Virus record (IMG/VR): IMGVR_UViG_2877274432_000010
Direction: 5' to 3' (one strand)
DNA: 47,469 bases
From: a virus
Lineage: Duplodnaviria; Heunggongvirae; Uroviricota; Caudoviricetes
The position numbers and the translations under genes were made by a program. The notes beneath the pieces are model-generated. The model ran no database searches. It was not told the DNA's origin and was given only the letters and a program-made list of their open reading frames with translations. Below, piece by piece: positions 21,069-27,632 of this stretch. Positions within the stretch are counted from its first letter, which is position 1. Each line of letters opens with the position of its first letter.

Positions 21069-22337
21069 ATGTCTGTAGTGATATCAGGTGCGCTGACTGA
21101 TGGCGCAGGTATCCCCATGTCCGGATACCATATTATTCTGAAATCCCGGGTAAACCCCCCGGAAGTGGTGATGAACACTGTTGCTGATGTGATGACAGGA
21201 AACGATGGTGAATACTGTTTCCATGCGCGGACTGGAAAATATGGTGTGTATCTGAAACAGGACTGGCGCAACGAGTACAACGTTGGCGACATTGCTGTAT
21301 ATGAGGACTCAAAGCCCGGCACGCTGAATGACTTTCTGATTGCTCCTGATGAGGGCGACCTGAAACCGGATGTCGTCAAACGCTTTGAGGAAATGGTGGC
21401 GCAGGCGCAGCAGAGCGCCGGGGCCGCAGCCGGAAACGCACAGCAGACGGCGCAGGATGTGGCGGCAGCCGCAGGTTATGCCCGCGCAGCAGAGCAGGCC
21501 AAAAATGACATTGATGCTGCGCTGACCGGCACTCTGAAAACGGCTAACCATCTGTCTGAAATCGCAGCAGCAGGCGAAAAGGCACAACAGAAGTCCCGGG
21601 ATAATCTGGGGCTGAAAAGTGCGGCCACGATGGAAGCACAGAGCGACATTTACGACCGGACAAAAGGCCGTCTGGCGATACCCGGCGCATTCGGCTTTGG
21701 GTGTGCTTTTCTGCCTGAAGATGTTATCCGTTTTGACACTAAGAGTGATTTCCTGGCCTGGGTAAGGAATGCGCTGCCAGGTGAATATTCCGTTGCTGGC
21801 CCCTACGGCATCATCATACCCGACACACGGTTTGAAGGGGTGCTCAGCATCCGGTGGACTGATGCACGCCCTGAGACAACAGAACCGCGGTACAGAGCCA
21901 AATCCCTTACTTTTTACGGCATTAACGGCCCCATTTATCACACCCGCTACCGCTACTGGCCCATATCCAGACTGACTGACTGGGTGAAAATAAATATAAC
22001 CACAGAAGATATTATTTACAGAATCGTGGCGAGCTCTGTCCGCAACAGATGGGGAGACCCTGACATTGGCGGGCTGATTATTGCTGCGTACCAGGGAGAA
22101 GCTGACGGTGATAAAGTCATCAGACTTGTCAGGGGGCAGTCATACAGAGGCTCACGACTGGGACCGGTGGGGATTTCAGTGCCCAGTACTCCCACCGGAA
22201 CGTATATAGCATCCCCACAATTTTTCATTACGGGATGTTCAGAGCATTCATTACCGGGGTCATATTGCGCCCTGTCCGGGGTGCCGGATGCTCATGTCTC
22301 TGGCGCAATGCCCGGGCTTTTTATTCGCACATCGTGA
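21069..22337 (+). CDS. Prophage tail fibre protein, 422 aa
   Basis: MSVVISGALTDGAG... with Ala/Gln-rich repeat region; followed by a tfa gene; last ~55 codons are duplicated at 41115-41282. Confidence 0.65.
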   Translation: MSVVISGALTDGAGIPMSGYHIILKSRVNPPEVVMNTVADVMTGNDGEYCFHARTGKYGVYLKQDWRNEYNVGDIAVYEDSKPGTLNDFLIAPDEGDLKPDVVKRFEEMVAQAQQSAGAAAGNAQQTAQDVAAAAGYARAAEQAKNDIDAALTGTLKTANHLSEIAAAGEKAQQKSRDNLGLKSAATMEAQSDIYDRTKGRLAIPGAFGFGCAFLPEDVIRFDTKSDFLAWVRNALPGEYSVAGPYGIIIPDTRFEGVLSIRWTDARPETTEPRYRAKSLTFYGINGPIYHTRYRYWPISRLTDWVKINITTEDIIYRIVASSVRNRWGDPDIGGLIIAAYQGEADGDKVIRLVRGQSYRGSRLGPVGISVPSTPTGTYIASPQFFITGCSEHSLPGSYCALSGVPDAHVSGAMPGLFIRTS

Positions 22338-22347
22338 GGAATGCACC

Positions 22348-22911
22348 GTGGAAATTAAAAAAATCATTAATCCCCGTTATACCGAAAGTGGCGCAGTAGA
22401 CTGTGACGTTTTTTTTGACGACAGGGACCAGGCAGTCCCCTACACAGCCACCGCTGATGATGTCGCTCCGACGGGTCAGCAAATCTGGCAGGAACTGCAA
22501 AGCGGCAAATGGGGTGAGATAGCCCCATTCACTGTGACACCAGAAATGCTGGAAGCGGCCAGAGAGGCCAGACGTCAGGAAATTGAAGCATGGCGCGCAG
22601 AACAGGAGGCGAAGCTGTTCACGTTTGAATGGAACGGTCGTATCTGGAATGCTGGTCCCGACTCACTGGGCCGCCTGTCCCCGGTAGTCATGCTGGCAAA
22701 ATCTGTCACAGCACAAACACATATGGCGTGGAGCGATGCCGATAATCAGCAGGTGAAACTGTCGATGCCGGAACTGGAAGAACTGGCGGCAGCAATGGTG
22801 CAGGCGCAGGTCGATCGCAACGATGAGATTTATCGCCGTCAGCGGGAGCTGAAGGAAGAGCTGAATAGTCTGAAGGATTTGAATTCGGTTAGGAATTTTA
22901 TCGTGGAATAA
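22348..22911 (+). CDS. Tail fibre assembly protein (GTG start)
   Basis: [15 protein letters not shown]...; TGAGGA RBS upstream of GTG 22348; a divergent copy lies at 41293-41856. Confidence 0.6.
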   Translation: MEIKKIINPRYTESGAVDCDVFFDDRDQAVPYTATADDVAPTGQQIWQELQSGKWGEIAPFTVTPEMLEAAREARRQEIEAWRAEQEAKLFTFEWNGRIWNAGPDSLGRLSPVVMLAKSVTAQTHMAWSDADNQQVKLSMPELEELAAAMVQAQVDRNDEIYRRQRELKEELNSLKDLNSVRNFIVE

Positions 22912-23111
22912 CAGAAGCTGCGGCACGTCGTATGCAGGAACGTGCCGCGGTTGGCTGGTAAACTTTCGATAGTGCGAGTATTGAATGATTTCTAGGCGTT
23001 ATCGATTTTACGTATTTTTTGCATGATAGAATTCGTACCTCCTCCCAACGACCTTCCATGGCTTTCCGGACTTCTGTAGGCTGGCGGACGATGCTGTCCT
23101 CGGATGTTGTG

Positions 23112-23969
23112 CTAATTGGGTGATAACAGATCCTGTGTATGGGCGTTTCCCTTTGTGCGTGCGTTGATGCTGGTAACGGTAAACGTCATGATGAACACGA
23201 CCGCGAATAAGACGACAATCGTCGGAGCTGGTGCGCTGTCGATAAAAAAGGACAGCCAGACACCAGTCATTGACACTATTACCGATATGCCAGTCGCCAG
23301 TAGGAGCGCAATATGAAAGCGTTGTGTCAGGAGTACTGCAATGGCGCCAGGCGCAATGAGCAGAGAAATAGAGAGAATGATACCTACTGCTTTCAGCGTC
23401 GCCACAATGGTCAGGGAAACCATGCACAGCAGCCCATAATGCAGCCATCTCGTATGCAAACCGCTTACCTGCGCCTGTTGATAATCAAAGCTGAACAGCA
23501 AAAAATCCCGCCATTTTACGCTAATAACAAGTGTAACCAGCCCGGCAATAATCACCGTCTGGATTATGTCGCCGATGGTTATCCCGAGCATGTCGCCGAA
23601 AAGAATATGGTCAAGATGTACGTCTGGTTTAATTGCAATATACAAGATCAGACCTGCGGCAAACATGCCAGAAAAAACAATCCCCATAACTGTATCTTGC
23701 TTGATTCGGCTGTTGTCTTTCAGGTATCCCGTCGCCACCGCGCAGAATACTCCGGCGACGAATGCCCCTGTAGCCAGAGGTAACCCCAGAATCCAGGTAA
23801 GCACGATGCCAGGAAAAACCGCATGACTCATCGCGTCACCCATCAGTGCCCAACCTTTCAGGACCAGAAAGACCGACAGCAGCGCACAGGGTATGGAAAC
23901 TACCAGTGAAATCAGCAGTGCGTGACTCATAAAGGTGAACTGCAGTGGCTCCAGTAATAATGCCATCAT
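23112..23969 (-). CDS. sitD: Mn/Fe ABC transporter permease SitD
   Basis: 285-aa polytopic membrane protein, last gene of a four-gene operon. Confidence 0.9.
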   Translation of the reverse strand: MMALLLEPLQFTFMSHALLISLVVSIPCALLSVFLVLKGWALMGDAMSHAVFPGIVLTWILGLPLATGAFVAGVFCAVATGYLKDNSRIKQDTVMGIVFSGMFAAGLILYIAIKPDVHLDHILFGDMLGITIGDIIQTVIIAGLVTLVISVKWRDFLLFSFDYQQAQVSGLHTRWLHYGLLCMVSLTIVATLKAVGIILSISLLIAPGAIAVLLTQRFHIALLLATGISVIVSMTGVWLSFFIDSAPAPTIVVLFAVVFIMTFTVTSINARTKGNAHTQDLLSPN

Positions 23970-26594: not shown

Positions 26595-26616
26595 AACATA
26601 GCAACGGCTATGTTTT
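26595..26616 (-). promoter_or_regulatory. MntR box in the sitA promoter region
   Basis: Palindrome AAACATAGC-AACG-GCTATGTTT about 35-55 bp upstream of the sitA start. Confidence 0.65.
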
Positions 26617-26637
26617 ATAGCATAACCTATACAAAAT

Positions 26638-26656
26638 GAAAATAATTATCATTAAC
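26638..26656 (-). promoter_or_regulatory. Fur box-like site in the sitA promoter region
   Basis: GAAAATAATTATCATTAAC, about 15 of 19 matches to GATAATGATAATCATTATC. Confidence 0.55.
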
Positions 26657-26992
26657 AGCTTTGAGGCCTAAAACAGGGATTAGGTTGTTTCCTGCTGGCG
26701 ACATGATATTGAGGAAAAAAGTAGAGCAGCTATTAGGCTTTGAAATGACTTTATGAGGAAAATTGTTGATGGCAAAAATGGGGCAAAAAAGAGTGGGTTA
26801 TCGTAGCTTATTGTTGTCGCTGATAATGTTTAACATATTGAAAAATAAATAAAATACTTATGAGTCAGATAGTTGTGATTTTTGCCCTTACTTGTTCAGG
26901 TTGTATTGTTCTTTCTTTGTAATTTGTTGATTTTCTTGCATTATTTCAGTTCTCTGGTACTAAATGGGGCAAATTGGGGGCAAACTTTGCAA

Positions 26993-27632
26993 CTACGATA
27001 ACCGCGCATTCAACATGGCTATCTGTTCGTCGTTCATGTCATCAATCCACATACCGTAAATTTCATACACCATTTGCGCAGTTTCATGCCCCATCTGGCT
27101 GGCTATAAATGCCGGGTTCGCTCCTGCCGTCAACAGCCAGCAGGCAAAAGTATGTCGCGTATGGTACGGATTACGGCGGCGAATACCAGCACGTTTTACT
27201 GCTGCATTCCATCTTGTACCCAAACTGCTTACCGAGTAATAAGGTTTCTGTTTTTCGTTACACACCCTGGGCATGAAAACAAAATGCAGTTTTTGTTTTT
27301 CAGTTCTGCCGTACTCCCGATGATAAAAAGTGATTTCGCTTTTGCGATGATGCCCGGTCAGTTTGTATTGCTCCTTCAGTGCTTCAAGAGCCGGCTGCAG
27401 TAATGCTACCGTCCGGATCCCGGCATTTGTTTTTGGGGGACCGAACATATCAAGTATCGTCAGGTTTCTTCTGACATTCACAATTCCCTTCTCGAAATCC
27501 ACATCCTCCCACGCCAGAGCTGCCAGTTCCCCGTGACGAAGCCCGGAGTAAACGGCAAATTTCCACAAGTTTTGGCTCTGTCCTTTTTCACTTTCCATTA
27601 ATGCATTGAATTCTGTTTTAGATAACGGGTCA
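26993..27632 (-). pseudogene. Phage integrase, C-terminal catalytic fragment truncated by IS1
   Basis: Tyrosine recombinase catalytic region (...NPYHTRHTFACWLL...GHETAQMVYEIYGMWI); N-terminus replaced by the IS1 end at 27633. Confidence 0.7.

Follow-up and report, generated by a model that had tools for sequence, protein, structure and literature searches.

Organization of the sit locus

The window analyzed here is a stretch of 47,469 nucleotides from Shigella flexneri. A sit operon lies in it between a tail-fibre module and the remains of a phage integrase gene.

20125-20477 (+): C-terminal fragment of a tail fibre
20501-21046 (+): tfa, frameshifted (PF02413)
21069-22337 (+): tail-fibre N-domain protein (PF08400)
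22288-22911 (+): DUF4376 protein (PF14301)
23112-23969 (-): sitD, 285 aa
23966-24823 (-): sitC, 285 aa
24820-25647 (-): sitB, 275 aa
25647-26561 (-): sitA, 304 aa
26594-26656: sit control region with a palindrome and a Fur-box-like 19-mer, read off the sequence

The genes sitA-D are all intact and have the lengths of E. coli and RefSeq sitA-D. The Pfam matches of the operon are ZnuA (PF01297), ABC_tran (PF00005) and two of ABC-3 (PF00950), corresponding to a binding protein, an ATPase and two permeases. Upstream of sitA are a perfect 9-4-9 palindrome, AAACATAGC-AACG-GCTATGTTT, at 26594-26615 and a Fur-box-like 19-mer, GAAAATAATTATCATTAAC, at 26638-26656. By comparison with the consensus operators, these are candidate sites for MntR and Fur. 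Since the operon is intact and has its own MntR/Fur-type control region, it is predicted to remain a working Mn/Fe importer. SitABCD transports Mn2+ and Fe2+ and is repressed by MntR and Fur (PMC4746246, PMC3852070).

The operon has the position of b-region (moron) cargo, as the original prediction had suggested. It lies between the tail-fibre/tfa genes and attP, is opposed to the late operon and has its own candidate promoter region. In phage 21 (OL657228.1) and about 30 lambda-like coliphages (Lambda_ev series, 1H12, Perceval), the same cassette is flanked by the side tail fibre genes and attP-int and again points leftward; identity to phage 21 is 98.2% over 23092-26746 of the window (3.65 kb). 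Phage 21 differs in its icd-type attP, its integrase and the extra b-region genes between sit and attP, whereas the S. flexneri element is a dead chromosomal remnant with a Rac/ttcA-type P arm.

An attP beside the sit operon

To the right of the operon, the DNA continues through an attachment site into the integrase gene and an early-left operon.

26751-26891: P arm of attP (phage side of attR), register-identical to the CFSAN029787 attR phage arm up to the core
26892-26917: 26-bp att core TTGTTCAGGTTGTATTGTTCTTTCTT, common to the window, E. coli attL and E. coli attR
26918-26992: P' arm with a phage-borne replacement ttcA 5' end, identical to the attL phage arm
26993-27634 (-): 3' part of intR (213 codons and stop; PF00589), 99.6% to intR of E. 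coli prophages at ttcA
27633-28400 (+): IS1 in intR, with 422 bp of int lost
28401-28746 (-): 5' end of intR (28401-28572) and xisR without its first 43 bp (28574-28746), 99.7% to CFSAN029787 intR/xisR
28747-32325 (-): IS3-family element split by a group II intron (RT/maturase Pfam matches; Rfam Intron_gpII and ALIL pseudoknot)
32326-39509 (-): early-left operon with AAA_24, gam, an IS600, recE', the kilR/ydaE region, an IS2 and Rha/Ash, identified by Pfam and colinear with E. coli prophages
32343-33440 (-): AAA_24
33446-33766 (-): gam
33741-35004: IS600
35009-36433 (-): recE'
37338-38671: IS2
38877-39509 (-): Rha/Ash

The ORF and Pfam map bears out the order first described for this DNA, namely tail fibre and tfa rightward, sitDCBA leftward, an AT-rich spacer (GC 0.41 at 26001-27000), int leftward and an early operon leftward. 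An attP core had been predicted within 26700-26990, and the 26-bp core at 26892-26917 matches the attB at ttcA. A Rac-type (IntR/ttcA-specific) prophage supplies both sides of the junction, its right arm at 20125-26891 (tail fibre, sitDCBA and sit promoter) and its left arm at 26918-28746 (IS1-cut int, then xis). In enteroinvasive E. coli CFSAN029787 (NZ_CP011416.1) a prophage of this type is normally integrated between ttcA and uspF, with int (99.6%) and the tail fibre-sit block (98.8%) at opposite ends. The tail-fibre module itself (20125-22911) is 98.8% identical to the right end of the CFSAN029787 prophage. The BLAST break points against one integrated E. coli prophage enclose the core; the attR match stops at 26934 and the attL match begins at 26892.

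The core occupies the position of the 26-bp recombination site annotated in phage Rac-SA53 (KU052037.1), with about 22 of 26 bases identical when counted by eye. The ATG of the replacement ttcA is at 26939-26941 on the minus strand of the P' arm, and Rac integration is known to alter the TtcA N-terminus (PMC4632033). The stop codon of int lies at a distance of 75 bp from the core, and sit is about 140 bp from the Rac/ttcA-type P arm. Repeats of the TGGGGCAAA type cluster at the core, at 26779 in the P arm and at 26965 and 26976 in the P' arm, although the motif was picked post hoc and shows no window-wide enrichment. Judged by its sequence, the sit-core-int junction is an authentic, base-exact attP (POP') of the IntR/ttcA module. 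This supports the earlier reading of a vegetative layout across attP instead of the layout of an integrated prophage.

The window is saturated with IS1, IS2, IS600, IS911 and another IS3-family element in the self-BLAST IS map, and such density would suit a chance joining of unrelated prophage fragments by IS recombination. However, there is no IS between sitA and int in the window, the join is base-exact at the att core, and a single intact E. coli prophage contains both parts. The sitA-core-int'-IS1 junction is also 99.7-100% identical in 10 of 10 complete S. flexneri genomes compared, and its recurrence in these independent genomes argues against an assembly error. Unrelated fragments or misassembly are therefore rejected as extremely improbable. 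The original prediction had named an origin of int and the tail fibres in different IS-joined prophages as the finding that would count against it; both are found in the single CFSAN029787 prophage.

Decay of the phage functions is evident to the right of the core. At the IS1 in int, the E. coli reference coordinates jump from 27660 to 27237, which is the 422-bp loss. The group II intron (about 29271-31531) is missing at exactly these bounds from S. flexneri CP034931.1. Identity to E. coli prophages is 99.6% for AAA_24-gam and 96.5% for recE.

The cognate attB at ttcA

In S. flexneri CP182555.1, which has the same sit junction, ttcA, core and uspF are contiguous and the attB is empty; this is one error-prone assembly with homopolymer indels in the core. 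By calculation from the locus positions, this attB lies about 421 kb from the sit junction on the opposite strand, inverted relative to attP. The genes ttcA, dbpA and zntB are all present in S. flexneri. The uninterrupted site agrees with the lack of a rac-like prophage in ttcA of four S. flexneri strains, 301, 2457T, 8401 and 2002017 (Liu et al. 2015, PMC4632033). A prophage integrated in the Campbell form would have int and cargo at opposite ends, with attL and attR at ttcA and uspF, whereas the window has POP' and is flanked by pgrR' and pphA. Since attP persists in the chromosome and the attB at ttcA is empty, the sit phage (phage A) was not placed by attP x attB integration. Its DNA lies in vegetative-map order at a site not reached by that route, and the claim that it is not att-integrated stands.

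The normal integrated state is preserved in relatives. Integrated E. coli prophages have sit at their tail-fibre/attR end, and S. boydii Sb227 and E. coli retain sitA-attR-uspF. The CFSAN029787 prophage, whose layout is also found in Sb227, shares its int, xis, AAA_24-gam (99.6%) and tail fibre-sit block with the window. In those genomes attL (ttcA) and attR (uspF) bound separate int and sit ends, whereas in S. flexneri the ends are joined through attP. The Rac module (IntR/XisR; PMC4632033; Rac-SA53) has the same integrase family member, core position and phage-supplied ttcA start. Rac is integrated and excisable, whereas the S. flexneri int has been destroyed by IS1 and the attP product alone is left.

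An internal attP could also arise from two successive integrations of IntR phages at ttcA with later deletion of the outer parts. Such tandems are known at ttcA in E. coli Jnd12 and O157:H7 F6294, which have the order tail fibre-cargo-core-intR-xisR with an internal POP' between two prophage copies. The order sitA-core-int' (232 bp) is retained beside uspF in at least seven genomes, E. coli H22 among them, and in E. coli a mere 20 kb or so separates ttcA from pgrR, the left flank of the window. In S. flexneri, however, ttcA is joined straight to uspF through an intact attB, and the window lacks the outer attL and attR and is flanked by pgrR' and pphA instead of ttcA and uspF. A tandem at the cognate attB is thus very unlikely and was rejected. 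Unlike the known tandems, the S. flexneri tandem sits away from the attB cognate to its internal attP.

A second prophage and the flanks of the window

The outer parts of the window contain chromosomal DNA, a second copy of phage backbone and the end of a sister prophage (C).

1-435 (+): 5' part of pgrR (ycjZ), the left chromosomal flank, cut by IS600; matches E. coli pgrR nt 1-436 and then diverges into the IS600 end
436-1700 (-): IS600, left boundary of the phage DNA (IS map by self-BLAST)
1701-13519 (+): left copy of the replication-to-Q-to-tRNA region of the sit phage, with inserted IS2, IS1 and IS600; colinear with the E. coli VL40 ttcA (IntR) prophage, 93-99.6%
39860-40588: ydfC-proximal segment of the sister-prophage (C) type, 97.8% to the VL40 yebY/pphA prophage
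41115-47469: native right end of prophage C and chromosomal flank, 97-98.5% and colinear with the RMDEC465 prophage end and pphA-yebW
41233-41856: tail-fibre 3' end and DUF4376 of C
42036-43751 (-): ipaH3 (Pfam NEL, LRR_TTSS)
44237-45005 and 45717-46981: simple insertions of IS1 (first) and IS600 (second) in the pphA-yebW part

In S. flexneri genomes tyrR-tpx-ycjG-mpaA-ycjY lies upstream of the left flank. Phage sequence begins at 1701, the ydaU start in the VL40 ttcA prophage. The region 1701-13519 has Pfam matches to DUF1376/YdaU, IstB-like, DUF977, DUF1367 and DUF1133 and contains four tRNA genes. Farther right, three perfect T7 promoters were seen at 15251-15619 beside the integrase of a tRNA-Gly island. 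The suggestion that the element was captured by IS is correct in part, in that this left boundary is an IS600 in pgrR.

The right copy switches from A-specific sequence (intR) to C-specific sequence at 39860-40588, a segment with no match of at least 250 bp to the compared region of the VL40 ttcA prophage among the matches listed. RMDEC465 has the colinear order tail fibre-DUF4376-ipaH3-pphA-yebW, and the right flank runs on into yebV-rsmF-yebT-yebS-msrC in S. flexneri genomes. The int remnant of C is still found beside yebY in S. flexneri-labelled drafts. The proposed tandem arrangement is likewise correct in part: the DNA of the sit phage continues into the right end of its ipaH3-carrying sister prophage of the yebY/pphA site. 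Phages A and C share tens of kb at >95% identity. The A/C crossover has no assignable position: int-to-gam has the same similarity (99.65%) to both sets of references, and the Rha region is a mosaic.

The window runs from intR of A through to ipaH3-pphA of C, and both the reciprocal and the unexchanged states are found in E. coli relatives. E. coli VL7S7 has ttcA-attL-intR...ipaH3-pphA together with the reciprocal uspF-attR-sit...int_C-yebY, and E. coli O121 201805972 has the A/C state without exchange. Comparison of the VL7S7 hybrids with the O121 state argues that the A x C exchange is real. VL40 shows another exchange, which involves a third sister prophage (ipaHd at yecD). The hybrid prophages of VL7S7 and VL40, with their inverted terminus region, resemble the S. 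flexneri structure. It is highly probable that the window is a decayed composite of two sister prophages with a common backbone, in which an authentic attP has been kept at a non-att location.

Proposed origin of the composite

The preferred history, which is the most likely one, starts from what is seen directly: the window contains a POP' junction, A-like and C-like segments and two identified flanks, and the attB at ttcA is empty. Phage A would have had a Rac-type IntR/XisR module, an attB in the ttcA 5' end and sitABCD as b-region cargo, and phage C would have integrated at yebY/pphA with ipaH3. The layout would then need one homologous A x C exchange and one attL x attR exchange by IntR. 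In the first step the two prophages, A at ttcA and C at yebY/pphA, would have recombined in their common backbone; they lie on opposite sides of the terminus in inverted orientation. This step has a living counterpart in the present-day E. coli VL7S7 state. Since attL and attR of A would now be mutually inverted, Int/Xis would cause an inversion instead of an excision, and attB at ttcA and sit-attP-int would both be produced in this single second step. In the third step, which is reconstructed from the flanks, an IS600-associated rearrangement at pgrR would have been accompanied by large deletions, of lysis-head-tail from one copy and of immunity-to-tail from the other. Insertions of IS1, IS2, IS600 and IS3-family elements would have frozen the structure, with IS1 destroying int.

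The specific order of exchange, inversion and freezing may well be correct, although its chances fall a little short of even, and both the order and the number of events are reconstructed. It is a tentative proposition that the junction records a chromosomal inversion of about 0.4-0.5 Mb which was catalysed by Int/Xis and spanned the replication terminus; such an inversion would have restored attB at ttcA and left all of phage A, in vegetative-map order, within a sister prophage. A third junction, now adjoining mppA and the int_C remnant at yebY, was not recovered. The end product alone is compatible with another order of events or with an excised circle in place of the inversion, and does not tell these apart.

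In the latter case A, excised or unintegrated, would have recombined as a circle with the resident C at yebY/pphA through RecA or phage RecE/Gam. Two prophages in tandem would result, enclosing an attP and leaving attB empty, and IS decay and the pgrR rearrangement would follow. This history explains the POP' junction, the vacant attB and the join to the right end of C equally well, and is favoured by the extent of A/C homology. That lambda can integrate into a resident prophage through general recombination is a classical finding. However, entry at ttcA would instead be expected of a phage whose Int works and whose attB is free, contiguous sit-attP-intR was found in none of 50,697 phage records, and the intramolecular route has a living intermediate in VL7S7. 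Capture of a circle is thus possible but somewhat doubtful.

If the inversion did take place, attP and attB, both intact and separated by 421 kb in inverted orientation, may form a latent inversion switch, which a superinfecting Rac-type phage could flip by supplying IntR.

Relation to known elements

The island corresponds to the S. flexneri 'PAI sit' (Fisher et al. 2009, summarised in PMC7545054), which is described there as unstable, present at several chromosomal sites and rearranged by homologous, not site-specific, recombination. Neither a retained attP nor a sister ipaH3 prophage is mentioned in that summary. The carriage of sit as b-region cargo by a phage (phage 21) was known before, as was the sit island of S. 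flexneri, and every component is of a known kind. No description of a fossil attP paired with an empty, inverted attB 421 kb away was found in the literature searched. The locus is a case of genome archaeology and not a new kind of system.

Since the carrier phage has no attL/attR pair and a broken int, it cannot excise and sit is locked in the chromosome. This would account for the fixation of a virulence-associated metal importer in S. flexneri. In Shigella and enteroinvasive E. coli, the prophages that carry sit, ipaH3 and ipaHd are siblings that swap ends and drive inversions around the terminus.

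Position of sit in the element

The sitDCBA genes lie between tail-fibre genes and an integrase, and their order and orientation through to the early operon are as the original prediction had read them.

Genes around sit in the window
20501-21046, rightward: tfa, frameshifted
21069-22337, rightward: tail-fibre N-domain protein (PF08400)
22288-22911, rightward: DUF4376 protein
23112-26561, leftward: sitDCBA, intact
26993-27634, leftward: tyrosine integrase, C-terminal part
past the IS1, all leftward: remainder of int, xis, AAA_24 ATPase, gam, recE and a Rha/Ash gene

The 3.65-kb sit cassette (23092-26746) is 98.2% identical to that of phage 21, where it is flanked by the side tail fibre genes on one side and by attP-int and then the early-left operon on the other. 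About 30 sequenced lambda-like coliphages carry the cassette in the same position. Where the prophage is integrated in E. coli, and also in S. boydii Sb227, sit forms the final block ahead of attR and uspF. On sequence grounds, sit is phage cargo. The spacer after sitA has a GC content of 41%. A perfect palindrome, AAACATAGC-AACG-GCTATGTTT (26594-26615), and a Fur-box-like 19-mer (26638-26656) are located 5' of sitA; these putative operators are presumably consistent with the reported regulation of sit by MntR and Fur.

Each component of the element has been described before: SitABCD and what it does in S. flexneri, the unstable 'PAI sit', carriage of sit in phage b regions, the Rac integration module, tandem prophages and prophage-mediated inversions. 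No description of a fossil attP paired with an empty, inverted attB was found in the searchable literature.

The attP junction

In the enteroinvasive E. coli CFSAN029787, the sit prophage (A) is normally integrated between ttcA and uspF and has the order ttcA-intR-xisR-DUF1187-AAA ATPase-gam-recE ... tail-tail fibre-tfa-sitDCBA-uspF. Window 20220-26934 corresponds to the right end of this prophage (98.8%) and 26892-27634 to its left end (99.6%), the two matches overlapping at 26892-26934. A three-way comparison identified a core, TTGTTCAGGTTGTATTGTTCTTTCTT (26892-26917), common to the window, attL and attR. Leftward of the core the window follows the phage arm of attR, and rightward that of attL, which carries a phage-borne replacement ttcA start (ATG at 26939-26941, minus strand). 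The recombination site of phage Rac-SA53 is annotated at the same 26-bp position, and there is no IS between sitA and int. Therefore, the attP core expected within 26700-26990, matching a chromosomal attB, is found at 26892-26917. Judged from its core and both arms, the sit-int junction is an exact attP (POP'). A candidate arm-site motif was not significantly enriched across the window; its local clustering is suggestive.

Flanks and the empty attB

The element lies away from its own att site. On its left are tyrR-tpx-ycjG-mpaA-ycjY and then the first 436 nt of pgrR (ycjZ), which is cut by IS600. The right flank, past the window end, is pphA-yebW-yebV-rsmF-yebT-yebS-msrC, and neither ttcA nor uspF adjoins the element. 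The 3' part of pgrR was looked for in S. flexneri: none of the indexed complete genomes of this species has it, and the one exact 145-aa fragment is on short contigs, not assigned to S. flexneri, that start at an IS1 end and not at IS600.

The window is S. flexneri DNA: its exact proteins, with gene order kept, are present in many complete S. flexneri genomes, and window 26500-28450 is 100% identical to S. flexneri CP044155.1. In S. flexneri CP182555.1 the sit-core-int'-IS1 junction is identical to that of the window, and ttcA is joined to uspF through an uninterrupted attB (BOB') in this one error-prone assembly, the sole direct check. From the locus ranges of CP182555.1, attB lies about 421 kb from attP on the opposite strand. 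Liu et al. 2015 (PMC4632033) independently place S. flexneri 301, 2457T, 8401 and 2002017 among the strains whose TtcA N-terminus is the one usual when the site is unoccupied. These results support the interpretation of the original prediction, in which sit is b-region cargo in vegetative order and outside its own att site.

The intact ttcA-attB-uspF arrangement is incompatible with a tandem lysogen at ttcA. Such tandems exist in E. coli Jnd12 and O157:H7 F6294, and as a remnant in E. coli H22.

In H22 (locus L002, 15998-18301) and in at least six further genomes of E. coli, sitA-att core-int' (232 bp)-DUF1627' adjoins uspF and the attR core is deleted. This remnant, at the cognate locus, is a sit-attP-int junction that is independent of the window's and has decayed. 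A frameshifted 'metal ABC transporter permease' is present between this junction and uspF.

Sister prophage C

Window 41115-47469 is colinear, at 97-98.5%, with the right end of the complete E. coli RMDEC465 prophage between yebY and pphA, and the only insertions in this part of the window are simple IS1 and IS600 copies. The order of that prophage (C) is yebY-int_C-xis-DUF1187-AAA ATPase-gam-recE-Rha ... tail-tail fibre-DUF4376-ipaH3-pphA-yebW, int_C being its integrase. C has a common backbone with A, but a different integrase and ipaH3 in place of sit.

Cargo of the sister prophage in the window
42036-43751: ipaH3, 571 aa, NEL E3 ligase with LRR, b-region cargo

The Shigella sRNA CssrB (Rfam RF02799, 151 bits) matches 43880-44062, just downstream of ipaH3 and before the att/pphA side.

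Window 1701-13519 (replication to tRNA) shares 93-99.6% identity with the ttcA-borne IntR prophage of E. coli VL40, which has a YdaU/DnaC-type replication module as in the window. Window 39860-40588 is 97.8% identical to the C prophage of VL40 and, within the regions fetched, has no match of 250 bp or longer in the VL40 ttcA prophage. The A/C crossover is not placeable by identity: int to gam is 99.65% identical to both references and recE 96.3-96.7%, so identity does not discriminate A from C. From the A-like and C-like matches and the flanks, the window therefore has a composite layout: pgrR'-IS600-(A: replication ... tail fibre-sit)-attP-(A: int-xis-early left)-(C-type segment)-IS debris-(C: tail fibre 3' end-DUF4376-ipaH3)-pphA.

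An int_C remnant adjoins yebY in S. flexneri-labelled assemblies; it was seen in draft contigs only, and these end inside int_C. A second early-left copy by int_C/yebY was not found in complete S. flexneri genomes, where the exact AAA_24 protein occurs in the sit-linked context only.

The enteroinvasive E. coli prophages at ttcA, yebY/pphA and yecD/aspS are siblings carrying sit, ipaH3 and ipaHd, respectively (VL40, VL7S7). Sibling prophages have swapped ends, so that the terminus region is inverted differently from strain to strain.

Origin of the arrangement

IntR would have acted on the attL and attR of A, since an exact POP' can only arise in this way, and one homologous A x C exchange is needed because the element is fused to C. 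Relatives display these steps. In E. coli O121 201805972, A occupies ttcA, and C is on the opposite strand at a distance of about 0.46 Mb. The state after exchange is found in E. coli VL7S7, with ttcA-attL-intR ... ipaH3-pphA-yebW and the reciprocal ompN-uspF-attR-sitABCD ... int_C-yebY. VL40 has a similar exchange, but with the third sibling, carrying ipaHd at yecD.

Homologous exchange between A and C would give a VL7S7-like state, in which the attL and attR of A are mutually inverted. Because of this inversion, Int/Xis recombination would invert and not excise the DNA between them, and one such event would yield both S. flexneri junctions, ttcA-attB-uspF and sit-attP-int. Alternatively, an excised or infecting A circle may have recombined homologously with a resident C. 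The end product would be identical to that of the inversion route, and among 50,697 phage records no virion genome with contiguous sit-attP-intR was found; capture of a circle is possible but somewhat doubtful. A simple IS2-bounded circle capture was rejected, as the DNA on the outer sides of the two direct IS2 copies is non-contiguous and comes from opposite strands.

Following the proposed inversion, the present window would result from a further IS600-associated rearrangement at pgrR, from large deletions that took lysis-head-tail from the left copy and immunity-to-tail from the right copy, and from the IS1 insertion in int, which removed 422 bp.

Insertion sequences and small elements

Self-BLAST of the window gave the IS map and showed a high density of insertion sequences.

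Insertion sequences in the window
436-1700, 11242-12490, 19176-20125 (partial), 33741-35004, 45717-46981: IS600
2151-3484, 37338-38671: IS2
8634-9401, 18407-19175, 27633-28400, 44237-45005: IS1
about 16024-17882: IS911 with internal duplication
28747-32325: IS3-family element with group II intron

The IS911 transposase gene contains a 646-bp tandem duplication (16591-17236 and 17237-17882, 99.8% identical). The group II intron lies at 29271-31531 inside the IS3-family element, with an RT/maturase ORF at 29352-30875 and an Rfam domain V match at 29262-29348. It is carried by complete S. flexneri CP044155.1 and CP102221.1 and is precisely missing from CP034931.1, so it was mobile recently.

A small recombinase island lies directly 3' of the prophage tRNA-Gly gene (13445-13519), at 13634-15619 and also 18252-18406. 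After the recombinase gene come three tandem units of about 121 bp (15251-15619), and every unit contains TAATACGACTCACTATAGGGAGA, a perfect copy of the 23-bp T7 class III promoter consensus.

Features of the island
13634-15238: tyrosine recombinase, 534 aa (PF00589 and DUF6538)
15327, 15448, 15568, plus strand: T7 promoters (0 expected by chance)

A related island at a chromosomal tRNA-Gly gene of E. coli 21AR0133 (fetched locus L055, 9103-12720) has two T7 promoters toward a Rha-family gene; in the window copy IS911 and IS1 interrupt this Rha gene. Possibly the island is a satellite, or an element for defence, that exploits the RNA polymerase of a T7-like phage. A literature search for T7 promoters on chromosomal islands gave nothing.

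Two isrK and C4-antisense RNA modules, of the P1/P7 immI type of antirepressor control, are also present. One (10940-11141, plus strand) follows the Q-like gene in the left copy, and the other (39270-39458, minus strand) overlaps the Rha/Ash 5' region in the early-left operon. The prophage replication-late region has a hok/sok-type toxin-antitoxin locus at 7819-7993 (Rfam sok/CssrC, 118 bits).
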